NCBI GenBank assembly: GCA_045535515.1
Contig: JAZSLT010000010.1
Location: forward strand, 1,916 to 65,915
Source of the DNA: Clostridia bacterium
GTDB lineage: Bacteria; Bacillota; Clostridia; UMGS1883; UMGS1540
Length of the DNA: 64,000 nucleotides
Direction of reading: 5' to 3'
A program made the position numbers and the translations under genes. Each line of letters starts with the position of its first letter. Position 1 is the stretch's first letter. This document shows, piece after piece, positions 3,868-56,480 of this stretch. The notes under the pieces are model-generated. The model worked only from the letters and a program-made list of their open reading frames with translations. It searched no databases and was not told the origin of the DNA.

Positions 3868-4012
3868 GACGCATCGATATAAATCTCTTACGAGATTTTC
3901 GATATATCCTAAAGGATTCGATATGTGCCAAGGCACTCGATATGTTTCCTTCGGAAACGAGCAAGGCGAGTATGTCGCACACAACACGCATCGATATAAA
4001 TCTCTTGCGCGG
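3843..4012 (+). repeat. CGATAT box/hairpin array (family A, locus 1) with an internal ~40-bp direct repeat
   Basis: TCGATAT boxes start at 3874, 3899, 3918 and 3937 (spacing 25, 19, 19 bp). Each is followed by a different short hairpin: aaatctc/gagattt, atcc/ggat, gtgcc/ggcac, gtttcc/ggaaac. The segment 3843-3883 is repeated at 3972-4012. Confidence 0.7.
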
Positions 4013-11248: not shown

Positions 11249-11383
11249 ATTGTTCCCTCGCCTTCCAAAATTTTTTTCATTATATCACGCGGCGGGGGTG
11301 TTGTCAATACGGAAAAGGAAGAAAGGTGAAAAGAATGGGGTGGATGACAATGTTTAGGCGATATAATAGATGCAGGTGTTTTT

Positions 11384-11560
11384 AGTGATATTCCAACTTC
11401 GTTGGCGTGATATTTTTGATAAATCAAAAGTGATATTGAAACCTTATGGTTTCAGTGATATTATATTTGCCATTAAACTGTGCGAAGCAAAATATCACTC
11501 GGCGAAGCCGAATATAACTGCGAAGCAATATAACTTGCCAAAGGCAAATATAACTGAAAA
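11384..11560 (+). repeat. GTGATATT / AATATAACT box-hairpin array (family B)
   Basis: Four GTGATATT boxes, each followed by a different small hairpin (ccaac/gttgg, tttgat/tcaaaa, gaaacc/ggtttc). Then an inverted AATATCAC. Then three AATATAACT boxes separated by tcggc/gccga, gc/gc and tgcc/ggca hairpins. Confidence 0.65.
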
Positions 11561-11590
11561 AAGACATCCATTGGATGTCTTTTTTCTGGT
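11556..11590. terminator. bidirectional terminator (agacatcca-ttgg-atgtct flanked by A/T runs) downstream of the tRNA pair
   Basis: A hairpin with an A-run on one side and a T-run on the other. On the minus strand it immediately follows the CCA end of the tRNA. Confidence 0.55.
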
Positions 11591-11663
11591 GGGCCCTCAG
11601 GGACTCGAACCCGGGACCATTCGGTTATGAGCCGAATGCTCTAACCAACTGAGCTAAGGGCCC
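11587..11663 (-). tRNA. tRNA with CAU anticodon (elongator Met or lysidine-type Ile2; the D-arm GCTCAGTTGGTTAGAGC resembles Ile2/Met)
   Basis: The reverse complement folds into a cloverleaf: GGGCCCT acceptor, CT-CAT-AA anticodon loop, GGTTCGAGTCC T-arm and an encoded CCA. Confidence 0.8.
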
Positions 11664-11666
11664 GTA

Positions 11667-11741
11667 TGGTGACCCCTACGAGAATCGAACTCGTGTTACC
11701 GCCGTGAAAGGGCGATGTCTTAACCGCTTGACCAAGGGGCC
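11667..11741 (-). tRNA. tRNA-Glu (UUC)
   Basis: The reverse complement, GGCCCCTTGGTCAAGCGGTTAAGACATCGCCCTTTCACGGCGGTAACACGAGTTCGATTCTCGTAGGGGTCACCA, is a near-identical match to Firmicutes tRNA-Glu. Confidence 0.85.
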
Positions 11742-14742: not shown

Positions 14743-15585
14743 CTAAATTCCAAAAATTTCCATAATTCGTTCAAATTCGGCTGCCGTCCCGTAGGAAATT
14801 TCAATTTTCCCTTTTTTGGCGTTTCCGCAAAGGCGCACACGCGAGCCGATTTTTTTAGAGAACCTTTCCTCCATATCCCGGATTTCTGCGGTATATTTTA
14901 CCGGTGCCTTCTTCGCCGGCCGGCCAAGACTTACCAGCCGCTCCAGCTCTCTGACGGAAAGGCCTTCGCGGATGACTCTCTCGGCAAGAGAAAGCTGGTC
15001 GGCATCAGCCGCCGCAAGGAGTGTTCTGGCATGGCCCGCCGATATTTTTCCTTCGCGCACCAGTTTTCTGACCGGCTCCTTCAGCGCCAGAAGGCGCAGG
15101 GCGTTGGCAACGGCGCTTCGGCTTTTTCCGATTTTTTCGCTGATTTCCTCCTGCGTCATGCCGTATAAATCCATAAGGTTACGAAAGCCCTCTGCCTCTT
15201 CCATGGGATTTAAATTTTCCCGCTGCAAGTTTTCAATCAGAGCAATTTCGCTGGCCGTTTTCTCATCGTATTCCCGGATAATGGCCGGAATTTCCTTTAA
15301 ATCTGCCATTCGGGCCGCACGCCACCGCCGCTCGCCGGCAATAATCGTGTAAAAGCCGTTTTCGTTCTTAGAAACAACGATAGGCTGAATAATGCCATGC
15401 TCCCGCACGGAGGCTGCCAGCTCCTCCAGCTGCTCGGCGGAAAAGCTTTTTCGCGGCTGGTCCTTATTCGGCTCTACTTCGGCAATCCGCAGATATACGA
15501 TTTTATTGCTATCCGGTTCGTTTTGCGGGAAATCTGCAGAAGTGAACAGGGCATCCAGTCCTTTTCCAAGTCCACCCTTAGCCAT
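14743..15585 (-). CDS. parB: chromosome partitioning protein ParB/Spo0J
   Basis: 280 aa with ParB box motifs (GERRWRAA) and a central HTH. It lies downstream of parA in the same operon. Confidence 0.9.
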   Translation of the reverse strand: MAKGGLGKGLDALFTSADFPQNEPDSNKIVYLRIAEVEPNKDQPRKSFSAEQLEELAASVREHGIIQPIVVSKNENGFYTIIAGERRWRAARMADLKEIPAIIREYDEKTASEIALIENLQRENLNPMEEAEGFRNLMDLYGMTQEEISEKIGKSRSAVANALRLLALKEPVRKLVREGKISAGHARTLLAAADADQLSLAERVIREGLSVRELERLVSLGRPAKKAPVKYTAEIRDMEERFSKKIGSRVRLCGNAKKGKIEISYGTAAEFERIMEIFGI

Positions 15586-15609
15586 ATAACCACTTCCTTC
15601 CTATTATAT

Positions 15610-16383
15610 TTATTCTGTTTCCATTGGTCGGTCCAGTACCTCCTGCGCCAAGTCCATATAGCTTTCCGCGCCGCGGCTGTGGGGGTCATACACGATGACA
15701 GGTTGTCCAAAGCCGGGAGCCTCGGAAAGGCGGACATTACGCGGGATAATCGTTTTGTATACCTTTTGCGGGAAAAACTTTTTCACCTCGTCCACCACCT
15801 GAATTGCGAGATTGGTGCGCGAGGAAAACATGGTCATCAAAACGCCTTCTATTTCAATCTGCGGATTTAAAAGCTTTTTCACTCTTTTTATCGTGGCCGT
15901 AAGCTGGCTGAGGCCTTCCAGCGCATAGTATTCGCATTGGATGGGCATGAGAACGGAGCCGCAAGCCGTCAGCGCATTTAAGGTAATGAGACTGAGTGAC
16001 GGCGGACAATCAATAAAAATAAAATCGTAATCCGCCTGTATGTCGGAAAGGGCCTCTTTCAGGCGATATTCACGCGCCATGAGCCCCACAAGCTCAATTT
16101 CCGCACCGGAAAGCGCCAGGCTGGAGGGACAAACGAAAAGATTTCGAAACTCCGTTTTTACAATAACCTCTTCCATTTTTTTTGCTTCAATGAGGACATC
16201 GTATACGGAATGTTCTATTGTCCGGTTGTCAATGCCGAGTCCGCTCGTTGCATTTCCCTGCGGGTCCATATCCACAAGAAGAACTTTTTGGCCTTTTTTT
16301 GCCAGACAAGCCGCTAAATTCACAGAGGTCGTGGTTTTTCCCACGCCGCCCTTCTGGTTGGCTATTGCTATTATTCTTGCCAT
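15610..16383 (-). CDS. parA: chromosome partitioning ATPase ParA/Soj
   Basis: Deviant Walker A (KGGVGKTT) and 257 aa. Confidence 0.9.
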
Positions 16384-16439
16384 GACTATCTCCCTTTTAT
16401 ATAGTTTCTTCTGCTATTTATCCCATTATAACACAAACT

Positions 16440-16455
16440 TGTTTCACGTGAAACA
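16440..16455. promoter_or_regulatory. parS site 1 (perfect TGTTTCACGTGAAACA palindrome)
   Basis: Exact 16-bp consensus ParB-binding palindrome, 57 bp upstream of the parA start. Confidence 0.85.
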
Positions 16456-16477
16456 AAAAAAGGAAAAAAATATAAAT

Positions 16478-16493
16478 TGTTTCACGTGAAACA
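16478..16493. promoter_or_regulatory. parS site 2 (perfect TGTTTCACGTGAAACA palindrome)
   Basis: Second exact copy, 38 bp centre to centre from site 1. Confidence 0.85.
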
Positions 16494-16617
16494 TTTTATA
16501 GCGGCTTTTATCTGCTCTCTTTTTGCCTTTTTGCGGTGCCTGTTTTTTGCCCTTTTCCCTTTCGTTTTTTTGTTCTATACTGAAAGAAAAAAATTTTCTT
16601 TTTTCTGTTTTTTCTTC

Positions 16618-16646
16618 TTGCAAAAAAGGAATTTTTTTGGTATAAT
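16618..16646 (+). promoter_or_regulatory. dnaA promoter (TTGCAA, 17 bp, TGgTATAAT)
   Basis: -35 at 16618-16623 and an extended -10 with TATAAT at 16641-16646. Confidence 0.5.
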
Positions 16647-16679
16647 AGGATGGAGTGGATATAGAAGGAAAGGTCTTGT

Positions 16680-16800
16680 TTTCCACACTTATTTTCGTAC
16701 TTTTTCACTTTTCCACATACTTATCCACATAAAACAAGCTGATTTTGCCGCGATTTGCCTGTTTTCCACATCTTCCGGTTTTTTTGTTTTCCACTTTTCC
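16680..16800 (+). promoter_or_regulatory. oriC part 1: cluster of DnaA boxes upstream of dnaA
   Basis: A perfect TTATCCACA at 16721-16729. Four more TT(T)TCCAC(A/T) variants (ttccacact, ttttccacata, gttttccacatc, ttttccact) in the same orientation. Confidence 0.7.
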
Positions 16801-16853
16801 GCCGGTAAAAAGGCTTGCATATTATCACTTTTTGGGAAAGGATTTTTCTATAC

Positions 16854-18161
16854 ATGGATGGCGAACTTTTAAATATCTGGGAACATGCTTTGCCTCTGAT
16901 TGAGGAAGAGGTTACGCCGGTCGGCTACAAGACCTGGATTTTAGCAATTTCCCCACTTTCTATTGAAAACAATTTTTTAAATGTTTCTGTACCAAATGAG
17001 GTAAACAAAAACATGGTGGACCACCGCTACAAGGAGCTGATTCAAAATGCCGTGTACGAGGTTTCCGGTCACCGCTGTACGCTCGTGGTACATATCGGCG
17101 AGGCACCCGAGGAAAAGAAGGAAGAGAAGGCCGCCCGAAATCTCGGTATGCCGTTAAATCCGAAGTATACCTTTGACAGCTTCGTCGTCGGCGGCTCCAA
17201 CCGTTTTGCGCACGCGGCCTCGCTTGCCGTTGCCGAAACGCCGGCCAGGACCTATAATCCCTTGTTTTTGTACGGCGGCGTAGGGCTTGGCAAAACGCAT
17301 CTTCTGCATGCTATCGGCAACTTTATCATTGAAAATAACCACGATATGCAGGTAATGTACATTTCGGCCGAAACCTTTACCAATGAGCTGATTAACTCCA
17401 TCAAGGATTCGAGAAACGATGAATTCCGCGAGAAATACCGCAGCGTGGATGTTCTGATGGTGGACGATATTCAGTTTATCGCCGGCAAAAAGGTAACGGA
17501 AGAGGAATTTTTCCATACCTTTAATACGCTTTACGATGCCAATAAACAGATTATCATCACGAGTGACCGGCCGCCCAAAGAGCTGAAAACGCTGGAGGAC
17601 AGGCTTCGTTCGCGCTTTGAATGGGGCATTATCGGCGATTTGTATGCGCCTGACTATGAAACGAGAGTAGCCATTCTGCGCAAAAAAGCACAGCTCGAAA
17701 AAATTGAAATTCCCGATGAAATTCTGGAGCTGATTGCCGAGAAAATTACCTCCAATATCCGCGAGCTGGAGGGTGTTTTCAACCGCGTACTCGCGTATCG
17801 CGGCCTTATAAACAGCGAAATTACGATAGATGTGGCGCTGGATGCGATGAAAAGCTACCACGCAACAGGCGGGCCGAATGTAAGCCCCGAGGAAATTGTG
17901 GATGCCTGTGCCAAATTCTATCATGTAAAAAAAGAAGATATTATGGGCAACAAACGCACAAAGAATATTGCCCGCGCAAGGCAGGTTGTGATGTATATGA
18001 TGCGCGAGATTTTAGGGTATTCGCACCTTAAAATTGCGAAATACCTGGATAAGCACCACACAACCGTTATGTATGGCATAAATGAAGTGGAATCCGCCAT
18101 GCAGGAGGACCATGCCTTCCATATGGAAATATCCACACTCAAGAAGGATATCACAGAATAG
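16854..18161 (+). CDS. dnaA: chromosomal replication initiator protein DnaA
   Basis: AAA+ Walker A (GGVGLGKTHL), a domain IV DNA-binding region and conserved oriC synteny. Start placed at MDGELLNIWEH (16854) rather than the upstream ATG of the ORF track. Confidence 0.9.
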   Translation: MDGELLNIWEHALPLIEEEVTPVGYKTWILAISPLSIENNFLNVSVPNEVNKNMVDHRYKELIQNAVYEVSGHRCTLVVHIGEAPEEKKEEKAARNLGMPLNPKYTFDSFVVGGSNRFAHAASLAVAETPARTYNPLFLYGGVGLGKTHLLHAIGNFIIENNHDMQVMYISAETFTNELINSIKDSRNDEFREKYRSVDVLMVDDIQFIAGKKVTEEEFFHTFNTLYDANKQIIITSDRPPKELKTLEDRLRSRFEWGIIGDLYAPDYETRVAILRKKAQLEKIEIPDEILELIAEKITSNIRELEGVFNRVLAYRGLINSEITIDVALDAMKSYHATGGPNVSPEEIVDACAKFYHVKKEDIMGNKRTKNIARARQVVMYMMREILGYSHLKIAKYLDKHHTTVMYGINEVESAMQEDHAFHMEISTLKKDITE

Positions 18162-18262
18162 TTTTCCACTATAAAAAGTGCCTGTTTTCGGCGAAAAAAG
18201 GACTTTTCCGTCCTTTCCACATGCTCTACTATAAATACTATTTTATTATTATATATATTAGC
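18160..18262 (+). promoter_or_regulatory. oriC part 2: DnaA boxes plus an AT-rich DNA unwinding element in the dnaA-dnaN spacer
   Basis: ttttccact and tcctttccacatg boxes, then a 35-bp stretch made almost entirely of A and T (tataaatactattttattattatatatatta). Confidence 0.6.
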
Positions 18263-18310
18263 GCGTTTTCCTTTTCAGAGGAGCGCCCTTTAAAAAACGG
18301 AGGACAAATC

Positions 18311-19426
18311 ATGATTTTTTCGTGTGAAAAGCAATCTCTTTCCGATGCCGTTTCTATTGTTATGAAGGCGGCCGCAAATAAGGCATCCATGCCGATACTC
18401 GAGGGTATCCTTTTAAGTACGGATGCGGACAGCCTTGTGCTGACGGCTAATAATTTAGAGCTTGCCATCGAGTGCCGCATACCGGCTGAAATCCGCGAAG
18501 ACGGCGCGATTGTAACGGGCGATGTCCGTGTTTTCTCGGAGGTTATAAGGAAGCTTCCGTCCGGCATGGCGGATATTACCGTTTCGGAGAATTTTTCCAC
18601 TACCGTACAAAACGGAAAATCCGTTTATAACATTCTCGGTATGAATCCCGAGGAGTTTCCGGATATTCCTTCCGTCCTTGAGGATTCCGGCATTACTGTC
18701 GGCGCAGAAACCTTAAAAAAGGCCATTCGCCAGACGGCGTATGCCGCCGCGATTAAAAATGAAAGACCTTCCCTCACGGGTGTTTACTTTGAAATTGAGC
18801 CGAAGGCGTTTCACATGGTTGCGCTCGATGGTTTTCGCATGGCCATTCATAACGAGCCGCTTTCGGAAAATCCGGACGAGGAGCCGTACAGCTTTATCGT
18901 GCCGGCGAGAACGCTTTTGGAGCTTTCCCGCATTTTGCCGGATGGTGATGCGCCTGTTTTCATTACAGCCAGCACAAAGCATGTGCAGTTTACCTTCGGG
19001 CAGATTAAGGTCGTGTCGCGCCTTTTGTCGGGCGAATATTTCCAGTATAAGCAGATTATTCCGGGTGATTTTAAAATTCAGACGCGCCTTTCGGTCCGCG
19101 ATGTGCTGACATGTGTAGAGCGCGCGGACCCCATTGTATCGACCGATGTGTATAAAAATCCGGTGATTATGACGCTTTCCAATGATACGCTTTCGATAGA
19201 CTGCGTCACAGCCGTCGGCAAAGCGCATGATGTGATTGAAATTCCCGATTGCGGCAGCGAGATCCGCATTGGCTTTAACCAGCGGTATTTGCACGACGCC
19301 CTGTCGGTATGTGACTGCGAAGAAATTATCATGGAATTTAACGGCAGCCGCAACCCCTGCATTATAAAGCCGGCCGAGGGGGATGAATTTTTGTTTATGG
19401 TCTTGCCGGTGCGTATCAGCGAATAA
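18311..19426 (+). CDS. dnaN: DNA polymerase III beta sliding clamp
   Basis: MIFSCEKQSL start preceded by GGAGG, three clamp domains and ~372 aa. The upstream in-frame ATG of the ORF track lies inside the AT-rich DUE and was rejected. Confidence 0.9.
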   Translation: MIFSCEKQSLSDAVSIVMKAAANKASMPILEGILLSTDADSLVLTANNLELAIECRIPAEIREDGAIVTGDVRVFSEVIRKLPSGMADITVSENFSTTVQNGKSVYNILGMNPEEFPDIPSVLEDSGITVGAETLKKAIRQTAYAAAIKNERPSLTGVYFEIEPKAFHMVALDGFRMAIHNEPLSENPDEEPYSFIVPARTLLELSRILPDGDAPVFITASTKHVQFTFGQIKVVSRLLSGEYFQYKQIIPGDFKIQTRLSVRDVLTCVERADPIVSTDVYKNPVIMTLSNDTLSIDCVTAVGKAHDVIEIPDCGSEIRIGFNQRYLHDALSVCDCEEIIMEFNGSRNPCIIKPAEGDEFLFMVLPVRISE

Positions 19427-19436
19427 AGGAGAAAAA

Positions 19437-19646
19437 ATGGAAGAGATTATCGTTCTTCGGGGAGAATATATAAAGCTGGACCAGGCCGTAAAGCATGTTC
19501 TCGGTCTTTCCGGCGGCGAGGCAAAGGAGCAGATACAGGAAGGCTGTTTTCTCGTAAACGGAGAGGTGGAAACGAGAAGAGGCAGAAAGCTTCGCGGCGG
19601 GGATATGGTGGAAGGCGAGGATATCAAAATTAAAATTGAGGGATAG
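19437..19646 (+). CDS. yaaA: S4-domain RNA-binding protein YaaA-like
   Basis: ~70 aa, lysine- and arginine-rich, in the conserved dnaN-yaaA-recF position. Start at MEEIIV with an AAGGAG RBS. Confidence 0.7.
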   Translation: MEEIIVLRGEYIKLDQAVKHVLGLSGGEAKEQIQEGCFLVNGEVETRRGRKLRGGDMVEGEDIKIKIEG

Positions 19647-19654
19647 AAAAAAAC

Positions 19655-20730
19655 ATGGTTGTCAAACGGCTCATTCTTTCCAATTTCAGAAATTATAAAG
19701 AGGCAGATATAGAATTTTGCCCGGGAACGAATGTCATATACGGAAAAAATGCCGGCGGAAAAACGAATTTACTCGAGGCGCTTTGGCTCTTTACGGCCGC
19801 CAAAAGCTTTCGCGCAGGCGGAGAAAGTGAGCTTATTCGGTTTTCCGAGGAGGCGGCAACGGTGAAAACCGAATATGCGGCCTTTGGCAGGGATATGACG
19901 GCGGAAATCACCATAAGTCCCGGAAAAAGAAAGCTTTTAAAGCTCGGCGGCGTAAAACTGGAAAAAACGAGTGAGCTGCTTGGGCAATTCCCGGCCGTGC
20001 TTTTTAGTCCTGATGAGCTGCACATTATAACAGGCGCACCTGAGGTGCGGCGGCGGTTTATGGACAGCGCCATCTGCGCCGCCCGTCCGGCCTATTATGG
20101 CGCACTTCGTACCTATATCCGCGCGTGGAAACAAAAAAATGCCGCGCTGAAGAAAAATCCCGAAAAAGAAAGCCTTGCGGTGTGGAATACCCAGCTGGCC
20201 GCAGCCGGCGCGCAAATTATGCAGTACAGAAGAAACTTTTTCCTCGCGCTCTCGCCGCTTGCTGCTGAATTTCACCGGCAGATAGCCGGCAAGGACGAGG
20301 TTTTGGAGGTTTTATACGCCCCTTGTGCCCCCCTTCGGGAAAATGAGGCGGAGCAAAGGGATGCGCTATATGCGGCGCTTGAGAAAAAGCGGGATGCGGA
20401 AATCCAGCAAGGCCTTTCGCTTATTGGCCCGCATCGGGACGAAATCCGCTTTCTTATCGGCGGACGCGAGGCACGCGCCTATGCCTCCCAGGGGCAGATG
20501 CGCACCGCCGCCGTTTCGATGAAGCTGGCACAAGGCGCACTCCTGGAAAAGGAAACCGGCGAGGCCCCTGCCGTTTTTCTCGATGATATTTTAGGGGAGC
20601 TGGATGCAGAAAGAAGAGCATTTCTTCTTTCCCATACAAAAAACAAGCAAGTTATTTTAACCTGTACCGAGAAAGAGGCCGTGGAGAAAACAGGCGAAAT
20701 GCGGTTTTTTGCGGTTAAGGAGGGCACCGT

Positions 20731-20746
<16 letters not shown>
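19655..20746 (+). CDS. recF: DNA replication/repair protein RecF
   Basis: Walker A (GKNAGGKTNLLEA), an SMC-like signature near the C-terminus and 363 aa. Confidence 0.9.
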
Positions 20747-28254: not shown

Positions 28255-28325
28255 CGGCGATATAAATTCTTCTCGGAATTTGTGATATGCTGCAAGTAAC
28301 TCGATATGTCCCTTCGGGACGAGAA
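28255..28325 (+). repeat. CGATAT box/hairpin array (family A, locus 2) in the 5' leader of pgeF
   Basis: ggCGATATaaattc..gaattt, gtGATATgctgc, then CTCGATATGTCCC-TTC-GGGACGAG immediately before the RBS AAAGGAG and the ATG at 28338. Confidence 0.65.
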
Positions 28326-30660: not shown

Positions 30661-30760
30661 TGCGATATATTTGCCTTGCAAATGCGATATACAGGCTACG
30701 CCTGCTCGATATGCCTCGCGGCTCGATATGTTGCCTTGCGGCAACGAGAATTTTACTTAT
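30661..30760 (+). repeat. CGATAT box/hairpin array (family A, locus 3)
   Basis: gtGCGATAT-atttgc/gcaaat, GCGATAT-caggc/gcctg, CGATAT-gcc..ggc, and CTCGATATG-ttgcc-ttgc-ggcaa-CGAG as the terminal module. Confidence 0.65.
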
Positions 30761-44158: not shown

Positions 44159-44442
44159 AAAACAAAAACTCCTGTCCCACGCCATTTTGCTGGGACAGGA
44201 GAATAAAATCCTGCGGTGCCACCCGGCTTGGCGCTTTTGCGCCCACTCTACGCATACTACCATATGCCGGCCTTTTGTAACGGAGAGCCAAACTCCGGCG
44301 CCCATACTCCAAAACTGTTTCTGTTTGCCCTCGAAGGTCCATTCGGCTTTATGTTTTTCACCGCAATCCCACCGCCTGCGGCTCTCTTTTGAAAAAGGGA
44401 TAAAGCGTACTTACTCCTTCTCAACGGTTTACCTAAGTATAA
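44159..44442 (-). promoter_or_regulatory. T-box riboswitch leader (probable tRNA-Trp specifier) with an intrinsic terminator, controlling the TrpB-like gene
   Basis: Minus-strand promoter TTGACA-17-TATACT (44465 to 44437). T-box sequence GGGTGGCACCGCAGG (44225-44211). Terminator ctcctgtccca..tgggacaggag + U-run (44202-44159), which shares bases with an alternative antiterminator. A candidate UGG specifier sits at 44342-44340. Confidence 0.6.
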
Positions 44443-45836: not shown

Positions 45837-45865
45837 TTGCATTTTTTTAAGGGGTGTGGTATAAT
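45837..45865 (+). promoter_or_regulatory. promoter (TTGCAT, 17 bp, TGgTATAAT) driving the family-A array leader and the DUF1624 gene
   Basis: -35 at 45837-45842 and extended -10 TATAAT at 45860-45865. The predicted transcription start is about 25 nt before the first CGATAT box. Confidence 0.5.
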
Positions 45866-45889
45866 GAATTTAATTGCAAAGCAATTAAA

Positions 45890-46190
45890 TTCAGCGATAT
45901 AAATTCCTGACGGAATTTGCGATATGTACTTCGTACGCGATATATCTTCGATGCGATATGTCCCTTCGGGACGAGAAATAGGAATTTATATCATATCGCA
46001 ACGGAATGAAATGGAGTTATATCGCATTTGAACAGAGTGAAAATATATCGCACGAACGAAGTGAGTATATCGCCAAAAGTCGGCATCTAAATTGTGCACG
46101 AATTCAGCGATATAAATTCCTGACGGAATTTGCGATATGTACTTCGTACGCGATATATCTTCGATGCGATATGTCCCTTCGGGACGGAAA
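45890..46190 (+). repeat. CGATAT box/hairpin array (family A, locus 4): unit, inverted boxes, unit
   Basis: A near-perfect 88-bp direct repeat (45890-45975 and 46098-46186). Each copy has four GCGATAT boxes separated by aattcc/ggaatt, gtac/gtac and gtccc/gggac hairpins. The central 45976-46097 carries four inverted boxes (ATATCGC). The array ends in CGATATGTCCC-TTC-GGGACGG + RBS + ATG at 46203. Confidence 0.7.
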
Positions 46191-46202
46191 AAGGAGAAGA
46201 AA

Positions 46203-46940
46203 ATGGGAAAAGAGCGCATTTTTTGGATAGATGAATGGCGGGGCGTAGCCCTCCTTGCCATGATACTACATCATATTGCGTTTAACCTGACGGATTTTCT
46301 GGCGCTGCCGTTGCCGCTTGTCCGGGCGGTGCTTTCGAGCCGCGCATTTGACGCGGTGCAGACGGTGTTTATTGCTATTTTCTTTTGCATATCCGGCATT
46401 TGCTGCCGTTTCTCCAAAAGGCCTTATCTTCGCGCGGGGCGCGTCCTTCTCGGGGCCGCGGCCGTGACGGCGGTGACATGGGCGCTTTTTCCGGACGAGG
46501 CGATATGGTTTGGTGTTTTGCATTGTCTTGGTGCGTGCATGCTTTTGTATGCGGTTTTCGGGCGGTGGCTCCGGAAAATACCGCCGCTTTTGGGAATTGC
46601 CGGAGCTATTCTTCTTTTTGTTATTACCTGCCGCGTGCCAGACGGATTTTTGCTTTTTCTCCCCTTGCCGGCCGGTTGGTATTGCGGCGGTCTTCTTACG
46701 ATTTTCGGCTTTTCCGCGCCGCTTTTTACCTCGCTCGACTATGTGCCGCTTCTGCCGCACCTGTTTCTGTTTTTGATAGGCGTGTTTATCGGCCGTCTGC
46801 CGCTGAAAAATAGTCGGCAGCACAGCCGTTTTCTGGCGTTTTTGGGGCGGCACAGCCTTTCGGTCTATCTTTTGCATCAGCCGCTTTTGTTCGGGGTGTT
46901 TTTGTGTTTCGAAAAAATCCTAGGAGGGATGAAACTATGA
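46203..46940 (+). CDS. DUF1624 / acyltransferase-3-like membrane protein
   Basis: Polytopic membrane protein with the N-terminal WIDEWRGVALLAMILHH motif typical of DUF1624. Confidence 0.55.
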   Translation: MGKERIFWIDEWRGVALLAMILHHIAFNLTDFLALPLPLVRAVLSSRAFDAVQTVFIAIFFCISGICCRFSKRPYLRAGRVLLGAAAVTAVTWALFPDEAIWFGVLHCLGACMLLYAVFGRWLRKIPPLLGIAGAILLFVITCRVPDGFLLFLPLPAGWYCGGLLTIFGFSAPLFTSLDYVPLLPHLFLFLIGVFIGRLPLKNSRQHSRFLAFLGRHSLSVYLLHQPLLFGVFLCFEKILGGMKL

Positions 46941-56390: not shown

Positions 56391-56480
56391 GGAGCTAAAT
56401 TGACCTTCGGTCAGCTAAATTGCCTGCGGCAGCTAAATTCGCCTTGCGGCGAGCTGAATGTGCTTCGCACGCGAAATTAT
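56391..56480 (+). repeat. AGCTAAATT box/hairpin array (family C)
   Basis: AGCTAAATT-gacc-ttc-ggtc, AGCTAAATT-gcc-tgc-ggc, AGCTAAATT-cgcc-ttgc-ggcg, AGCTGAATG-tgc-ttc-gca, CGCGAAATT. It starts 2 nt after the phosphoesterase stop codon. Confidence 0.65.

Follow-up and report, generated by a model that had tools for sequence, protein, structure and literature searches.

A tRNA-linked array of boxes and hairpins as a probable copy of an extended, two-part Gut-1 RNA motif

Gut-1 RNA was described by Weinberg et al. (2010, Genome Biol 11:R31, PMC2864571), who reported 43 members from human-gut sequences only and judged the motif to be an RNA and not cis-regulatory. Since 2010 it has been part of Rfam (RF01706) as a 77-nt model without a function or a cultured host. 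Like the Gut-1 units analyzed in our study, the REP and BIME elements of Enterobacteria are multi-copy palindromic modules that follow transcription units at their 3' ends or separate cistrons, and protection of mRNA 3' ends, attenuation and effects on translation have been proposed as their roles (PMC2817692, PMC12306157).

Identity and architecture of the array

Here we analyzed an array at 11384-11560 of the window, the whole 64-kb stretch of DNA under study. The first-pass annotation had described it as four direct boxes and inverted boxes with covarying hairpins between them, which fitted a DNA-binding regulator array as well as an RNA element. The Rfam covariance model RF01706 matched the minus strand over its full length (Table 1), although the margin over the gathering threshold is narrow, and the plus-strand half scored 26.1 bits. 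Since the minus strand reaches 51.7 bits and the plus strand 26.1 bits, the half that had been called inverted is the modelled Gut-1 core, and the GTGATATT half repeats this grammar in convergent orientation. Gut-1 consists of three hairpins separated by GUGAWAU linkers, and the window has the same organization, with three consecutive covarying hairpins and linkers of the GUGAWAU type between and flanking them. Moreover, an nhmmer profile that was built from 97 foreign elements, excluding the window copy and its four nearest relatives, matched the minus strand at 11567-11369 (E 9.7e-54, 176.6 bits, 199 nt, model positions 30-230). Matches at or above the Gut-1 gathering score were found on the same strand in 10 of 18 related loci, and an Rfam scan of the region returned no other credible family.

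Similar features were seen in two of the seed sequences covered, BAAZ01025322 and BAAZ01000095. Along their flanks a tRNA or stop codon is followed by a strong hairpin, then by AGUUAUAUU/AGUGAUAUU boxes and their hairpins, by the centre GCGAAUAUAAUAUCAC and finally by AUAUCAC anti-boxes. One of these two seed sequences also follows a tRNA, and the seed strand is the strand of the window match. Based on these comparisons we hold with high confidence that the window array represents one complete copy of an extended two-part Gut-1 RNA motif, and the Rfam model, with its 77 positions, spans only the first half of this larger unit. In Rfam and in PMC2864571 Gut-1 is this first half, and neither the anti-box half nor the long-range helix nor the 4+4 rule is described there. 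The same holds in PMC2864571 for the tRNA link and the named MAG lineages, including those of the ruminant gut, that were found here. The motif itself is known. New are its organization in two parts with the long-range helix, its association with tRNA genes and the wide range of related arrays. With its two parts, the real Gut-1 unit measures about 200 nt, and its long-range helix and a local hairpin compete with each other. The unit follows the 3' ends of transcription units, in one third of cases those of tRNA operons, and its carriers are gut lineages that can be named. Strand-specific RNA-seq, pull-downs and deletion tests therefore become possible once a cultivable or metatranscriptome-sampled carrier has been identified.

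On the plus strand GTGATATT starts at 11385, 11407, 11430 and 11455, and one minus-strand copy lies at 11491-11498. These five copies are all that the 64 kb contain, 1.5 being expected, and all lie in the array. The four minus-strand boxes comprise one GTGATATT and three GTTATATT, and AGTTATATT was found on the minus strand at 11511, 11527 and 11547 (three observed, 0.32 expected). Both sets of boxes were thus confirmed with their coordinates. The spacing of 22-24 bp held for the first two start-to-start intervals on the plus strand, which measure 22 and 23 nt, but the third is 25 nt. Read on the plus strand, the anti-box array is a second, convergent box array. Six clean spacers form perfect hairpins (CCAAC-TTC-GTTGG, TTTGAT-AA-ATCAAA, GAAACC-TTAT-GGTTTC, CGGC-GAA-GCCG, GC-GAA-GC and TGCC-AAA-GGCA). 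Their stems hold 27 Watson-Crick pairs, whereas 20,000 shuffles of the same spacers gave 9.9 +/- 2.2 pairs and a maximum of 21. The complementarity is therefore far better than in shuffled sequence, as the annotation had wanted checked, and together with the heavy covariation across more than 100 loci it bears out the proposed grammar of boxes plus covarying hairpins. The folding z-score of the whole array was -6.7 on the plus strand and -6.9 on the minus strand. The repeat array in the window is far beyond chance.

Table 1. Features of the array and of its surroundings (positions of the window)
Feature	Position	Strand	Remarks
hp0	11556-11586	-	14-bp hairpin with A-run and U-run flanks; intrinsic terminator of the tRNA operon; bounds the element on its 5' side
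Gut-1 core (Rfam extent)	11487-11556	-	RF01706, 51.7 bits (gathering score 50), E 2.6e-7, full model 1-77
Boxes 1-3, AGUUAUAUU	11547-11555, 11527-11535, 11511-11519	-	box search
Box 4, AGUGAUAUU	11491-11499	-	box search
hp1, hp2, hp3	11536-11546, 11520-11526, 11500-11510	-	hairpins of the Gut-1 core
hp4, UUGC-UUC-GCAC	11480-11490	-	last hairpin of the box array; conserved position
Long-range helix, 5' strand GUUAUAUUUGCC	11543-11554	-	box 1 plus 5' arm of hp1; partner 11460-11471
Centre, 3' strand of the long-range helix, GGCAAAUAUAAU	11460-11471	-	overlaps the first anti-box; contains TATAAT
Anti-box array, four AAUAUCAC(U) sites	11384-11462	-	plus-strand Gut-1 score 26.1 bits
Anti-boxes, as plus-strand AGTGATATT	11454-11462, 11429-11437, 11406-11414, 11384-11392		spaced by hp5-hp7
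hp5, hp6, hp7	11438-11453, 11415-11428, 11393-11405	-	stems covary
Full element	11369-11567	-	profile match, elements of other genomes only
Promoter-like TTGAAA-17-TGaTATTAT	11436-11464	+	formed by anti-box 2/hp5 and the centre
tRNA-Met(CAT), tRNA-Glu(TTC)	11587-11663, 11667-11741	-	upstream transcription unit
madL promoter, TTGACA-17-TATAAT with TG	11279-11307	-	downstream of the element, outside it

A search for further arrays had been recommended, and the boxes do recur: scanning one genome per species for GTGATATT-N18-45-AATATAATATCAC yielded at least 119 other contigs. Among the matches listed, the carriers are nearly all gut MAGs of the Oscillospirales type (Acutalibacteraceae, Oscillospiraceae, Ruminococcus, Faecousia, 'Clostridia bacterium') from human, goat, sheep, cattle and roe-deer hosts, and 102 full-length elements were parsed from these matches. 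The canonical unit consists of hp0, four boxes, hp4, an invariant centre and four anti-boxes separated by hairpins of 6-7 bp. Its AGUKAUAUU boxes go with short hairpins closed by C-G pairs and the complementary AAUAUCACU boxes with longer ones. Four boxes are present in 91 and four anti-boxes in 82 of the 102 parsed elements; box 1 reads AGUUAUAUU in 82 of 92 elements and box 4 reads AGUGAUAUU, again among the matches listed. A hairpin equivalent to hp0 precedes box 1 in essentially all 102.

The copies listed as nearest to the window element, at loci L109 and L053, are 91-92% identical to it. Other copies differ in their arrangement. At L052 (1273-1469) both ends of the mirror-symmetric element carry a full box array and a terminator hairpin of their own. 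At L083 (about 1100-1142) a second element begins directly after the last anti-box, and at L085 (2424-2728) a convergent tRNA-Ser lies on the anti-box side about 20 nt past the last anti-box. Besides, the loop motif GAACGRAGUGR recurs in one anti-half hairpin of both the B family, to which the window array had been assigned, and the A family, another array family of the window. It was found in hp5 of L011, L018, L088 and L096, and in the first or third anti-array spacer of L153, L202 and the window (46052-46066), and one way to fold it gives a GAA triloop whose stem contains tandem G-A/A-G mismatches.

Hairpin covariation and the long-range helix

Among the matches listed, the two halves of the element contain 131 and 194 distinct spacers. 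Of these 92% are hairpin-like, with about 93-95% of the stem positions in Watson-Crick pairs, and in many stem pairs 20-50 sequences had changed on both sides. The stem of hp4 covaries in the related elements as well (CG 50, UA 18, GC 16). The gathering-score match of the right half and this covariation over more than 100 loci support the RNA element, one of the two readings that had been offered for the array.

A second fold involves distant parts of the element. Box 1 and the 5' arm of hairpin 1 (GUUAUAUUCGCC) pair with the centre (GGCGAAUAUAAU), and the invariant GGCAAAUAUAAUAUCAC of the centre thereby enters a 12-bp helix that excludes hairpin 1. In 68 sequences 98.4% of the cells of this long-range helix were paired and 15 cells had changed on both sides; compensatory variants comprise CGCC/GGCG, UGCC/GGCA and UGUU/AACA. 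The competing hairpin 1 was paired in 97.5%. An analogous helix is present in the family-A leader of the window, where 45897-45908 pairs with 45981-45992. Metagenome elements of the A type form it with fresh compensation (AAATCC/GGATTT, GCATTCC/GGAATGC, GGATCC/GGATCC and GAATCC/GGATTC, with AAATTCC/GGAATTT as further partners). This independent recurrence in family A is the strongest evidence that the long-range helix is real. The kinship with family A that the annotation had asserted is also seen in the family-B profile, which weakly matches the family-A and family-D arrays in the same orientation.

For the window RNA, the fold with the long-range helix was calculated at -44.4 kcal/mol, which is close to the minimum free energy of -47.6 kcal/mol and about 9 kcal/mol better than the local hairpins alone. 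Boxes and anti-boxes are complementary to each other, and RNAalifold draws box 4 paired with anti-box 1. In the related elements no covariation supported the pairing of boxes 2-4 with anti-boxes, and the variants of boxes 1-3 (GUU, GUUC, GUGG) are uncompensated in the anti-boxes. A forced nested ladder of boxes and anti-boxes was only 1.3 kcal/mol better than the local hairpins alone. The constraints on the element act on a single strand.

Genomic context and transcribed strand

The flanks of the array were found as annotated, with a terminator at 11556-11586, minus-strand genes for tRNA-Met and tRNA-Glu, and MadL and MadM, which were recognized by Pfam. The stem of hp0 has 14 pairs followed by a T-run and ends at 11586, next to the end of tRNA-Met at 11587. 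Rich in G+C, followed by a U-run and placed where a transcription unit ends, hp0 has the features of an intrinsic terminator, and because of the A-run upstream of it, it reads as a terminator both ways. Among the matches listed, a tRNA gene lies directly upstream on the same strand in 35 of 103 copies, with 12 isotypes, and in 32 of these 35 the tRNA ends 119-130 nt from the centre. The upstream ORFs in the same set are co-oriented with the element in 58 cases and not in 20. Genes upstream of the copies without a tRNA are unrelated housekeeping genes that have nothing in common, and for this reason a link to highly expressed or functionally related upstream genes was rejected. Two A-type full elements lie close to translation starts: at L176 the element fills the gap between the stop codon and the RBS-ATG of co-oriented genes, and at L202 it lies about 70 nt upstream of an RBS.

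Where hp0 lacks a U-run, a terminator was found after the last anti-box in 16 of 29 copies, compared with 15 of 60 otherwise (p = 0.008). In a subgroup whose hp0 reads GAGGCGCAC.. or GUGGCACC.. and has no U-run (L027, L033, L036, L038, L040, L045, L092 and L093), a conserved extension is seen about 10-120 nt past the last anti-box. It consists of a UGCCGAGAAAA...UUUUCGGCA hairpin followed by GUAUGUAACCCACUAUGACACUUUCA...UGAAAGUGUC and a U-run and forms a conserved module ending in a terminator. Convergent genes adjoining the element have their own terminators, and therefore the idea that the anti-box half terminates these genes was rejected. Judged by its neighborhood in the related genomes, the element belongs to the 3' end of the unit that precedes it and shares the orientation of that unit.

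Several other origins were discarded. Only 15 matches among 2.9 million viral contigs speak against a phage origin. A CRISPR or type III antitoxin array does not fit, as the units are not identical repeats and the repeat has 8-9 nt; between the flanking genes of the array no cas or toxN-like ORF was found. The small ORFs of 47 and 86 aa that cross the array cannot be reconciled with the compensatory changes in the stems.

The indicators of the transcribed strand conflict, since the gene context favors the annotated strand and the loop polarity the other. Wobble pairs were uninformative: G-U and A-C mismatches are equally rare on both strands in both halves (9 versus 13 and 22 versus 19), so that neither strand carries a wobble signature. 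Loops of the box strand begin with U (UUC, UAC, UUGC and others), whereas GNA/GNRA loops were counted on the complementary strand in 28 of 55 and 12 of 33 cases versus at most one. In hp0, a genuine terminator, GNNA/UUCG loops lie on the transcribed strand. No promoter was found for minus-strand transcription of the window array, and a tRNA-strand promoter in the centre was rejected because TATAAT is present there but the -35 is not above background and a TG is missing. For a full-length RNA of the opposite strand, inspection of the right flank by eye and by alignment showed no conserved promoter beyond the last anti-box. With moderate confidence, we suggest that the element acts at the RNA level on the tRNA strand. 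Past the strong terminator hp0, the window array may receive little RNA of the minus strand.

Candidate functions and related arrays

The explanation we favor, tentatively and at a little under even confidence, is a structured RNA module that would be transcribed box-first with the upstream unit, recruit a factor and play a REP/BIME-like role between operons, and not a DNA operator. In the window copy, box-first transcription would occur by read-through of hp0, whereas in copies whose hp0 lacks the U-run, or which lie between cistrons, the element would be ordinary 3' UTR or spacer. The variable hairpins might act as insulators, so that four identical AU-rich sites of 9 nt stay unpaired and apart from each other. 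These sites could be exposed or masked through alternative folds, in which hp1 is set against the long-range helix and the boxes against the anti-boxes. Such a multivalent display would recruit a putative sequence-specific single-strand RNA-binding protein or endonuclease. The recruited factor may then cap, process or protect the upstream transcript at its 3' end and prevent read-through RNA from entering the next unit. Since the two halves mirror each other, the same action could apply to transcription from the other side. The specific role, be it docking, processing or insulation, is a guess, and our confidence in it is low.

Multi-site protein-sponge RNAs of the CsrB/RsmZ type use unrelated hairpins to expose a repeated short single-stranded motif, as the element does. 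However, these RNAs present a GGA motif in loops, whereas the element carries AGUKAUAUU in linkers, contains complementary anti-sites and is not a free-standing gene in the window. REP and BIME elements often lie within about 15 nt of a stop codon in alternating orientation, as seen here, and their proposed roles fit the positions of the Gut-1 units. In contrast, REPs have conserved stems tagged GTAG/CGTC and are linked to RAYT transposases, whereas here the stems vary and the single-stranded linkers are conserved (PMC2817692, PMC12306157). The stems of the element differ between units and copies (131 and 194 distinct spacers), and a GTAG/CGTC tag is absent. The two share no sequence similarity and the analogy is functional only. 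The element follows the opposite principle to REP/BIME, with linkers conserved and stems free.

Among the alternatives, an sRNA from the opposite strand stays a live rival because of the loop polarity, the neutrality of the mismatches and an extended -10 with a -35 in about half of the copies, though we consider it improbable. It would be an RNA of about 120 nt on the plus strand of the window that starts near 11471 from the extended -10 in the centre, runs through hp4'-hp1' and ends at hp0, with four single-stranded AAUAUMACU sites. In that case Rfam would have the wrong strand for Gut-1, with the GTGATATT half serving as promoter and upstream region. A promoter scan did find TTGAAA-17-TATTAT with TG at 11436-11464, the TTGAAA coming from anti-box 2/hp5, and among the matches listed at least 4 of 6 positions of the -35 agree in 48 of 102 elements as compared with 13% in the background. 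Yet half of the copies lack the -35, and the search pattern itself had fixed the -10. The GNA/GNRA loops of hp1-4 fall on this strand, with the polarity of the control terminator hp0; the conserved A-run that precedes hp0 reads as a U-run here; and L052, mirror-symmetric with a terminator at both outer ends, would fit as well. The internal G-U pairs of hp0 point the same way, with 27 on the opposite strand versus 10, but this excess comes largely from one inherited hp0 subtype. With a predicted start immediately beyond the strand of the helix, the sRNA leaves the strongly covarying hp5-7 and the long-range helix unexplained. Moreover, arrays of the same superfamily are sense-oriented in 3' UTRs, 5' UTRs and intercistronic spacers, and among the seed sequences covered those of the GUGAAAU type have a downstream terminator on the box strand.

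A small chance, similar to that of the sRNA, goes to a factor-independent, bidirectional fail-safe terminator or insulator in which each hairpin plus AGUKAUAUU is a weak terminator or pause site. Four units would face each direction, back up hp0 and shield the neighbors from read-through and antisense transcription. Four units in the window score terminator-like in their own reading direction, and the mirror-symmetric element always lies between transcription units directly after a terminator-like hairpin, with neighbor genes that have nothing in common. At L085, the convergent tRNA about 20 nt beyond the last anti-box also fits. Nevertheless, U-richness needs neither near-invariant 9-nt boxes nor an exact 13-nt centre across bacterial families, and the long-range helix would have no role. 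Some related arrays directly precede an RBS or separate two cistrons, and termination there would shut off the gene that follows. Convergent neighbors have terminators of their own.

The other reading in the first-pass annotation, a DNA-binding regulator array in the promoter region of madLM, was not supported. The array lies upstream of the madL core promoter, a perfect TTGACA-17-TATAAT at 11307-11279, and thus outside the promoter and the 5' UTR. Among the matches listed, madLM occurs at one of about 115 related loci, 5 kb from the element, where madL has a consensus promoter and no array. With madLM absent from 114 of 115 related loci, no array at the one madL found and varying downstream genes, the link was rejected. 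The element is independent of madLM, and its identification removes a tempting but wrong inference of madLM regulation by the array. In this reading, which we regard as very unlikely, four direct and four inverted double-stranded sites about two helical turns apart would bind a regulator or nucleoid protein that controls madLM or the local topology. The spacing of 22-25 bp, the inverted arrangement, the equal G-U and A-C counts and a position 105-280 bp upstream of the madL start site agree with it, and operator and iteron arrays share the direct and inverted 8-9-bp boxes at about two helical turns. Unlike in such arrays, the spacers of the window array are hairpin-constrained and its promoter association is not conserved. 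A double-stranded operator array is unlikely because its spacers would need no hairpins, no polar loops and no covarying long-range helix, whereas the palindromic compensated spacers, the polar loops and the covarying 12-bp helix are single-strand constraints. In addition, the orientation is fixed relative to the upstream unit, and homologous arrays lie inside transcribed UTRs. The boxes may resemble -10 or Fur-type half-sites, but DnaA boxes, Fur/PerR half-sites, the extended Shine-Dalgarno sequence and C/D box C presumably each fail to fit some of the box families. In the madL promoter the -10 region at 11282-11294 (CGCCGCGTGATATAAT, minus strand) agrees in 12 of 13 nt with the hp3/box-4 junction at 11492-11504 (CGCCGAGTGATAT), which may reflect chance or derivation from a box.

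Least likely is a selfish MITE- or REP-like repeat that spread to many gene 3' ends without a host function. It would suit the variety of contexts (tRNA genes of 12 isotypes, protein genes without relation), the presence of several copies in a genome, the inverted boxes at the ends and a lineage-specific pair of copies that are almost identical (91%). Against it, the hairpins are kept by compensatory substitutions and do not decay, the stem sequences are not conserved, unlike those of RAYT-recognized REPs, no target-site duplication or associated transposase was seen, and copies within a genome (67-77% identical) predate the species splits, those between genomes being 84-92% identical. This pattern of identities rules out a recent MITE burst and favors a host function over recent mobility.

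Further arrays were found in the window, so that arrays occupy at least six loci in it and comprise eight box arrays and five variants of the box. The other loci lie on the plus strand at 3874-3960 (four TCGATAT), 28257-28320 (GCGATAT/GTGATAT/CGATAT), 30662-30745 (two GCGATAT and two TCGATAT), 45894-46185 (four GCGATAT, four inverted ATATCGC and four GCGATAT) and 56393-56475 (three AGCTAAATT and variants). In these five the box strand is the sense strand. Four of them start 4-14 nt past a stop codon, two end just before an RBS-ATG, and the last hairpin is usually followed by GAGAA. Family A1 (45837-46205, plus strand) begins with a promoter-like TTGCAT-17-TGgTATAAT and a 12-bp hairpin. Array 1, a centre that pairs with box 1, four anti-boxes and an identical array 2 follow, and a membrane-protein gene with its RBS and ATG (46203) comes next. 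From its layout it looks like a leader whose anti-boxes could pair with either array, in a 1:2 / 2:3 attenuator-like arrangement. A wider proposal, less secure than our favored reading and rather unlikely in our view, is that Gut-1 would be the visible tip of a large superfamily of conserved linkers and free hairpins in gut Oscillospirales. The complete unit would then be a two-part, two-state RNA device, in which the covarying long-range helix closes the box array and the complementary anti-boxes follow. It would answer a putative factor, act on transcripts from both directions at the ends of genes and tRNA operons and thereby be a lineage-specific counterpart of REP/BIME.

Apart from the arrays, the window spans the chromosomal origin region at 14743-20746, with parB and parA on the minus strand and dnaA (16815-18161), dnaN and recF on the plus strand. 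A DnaA-box cluster is located at 16679-16770, and the GC skew changes sign at about 18-20 kb. A T-box leader on the minus strand at 44188-44433 scored 92.5 bits, just under the Rfam gathering score of 93.
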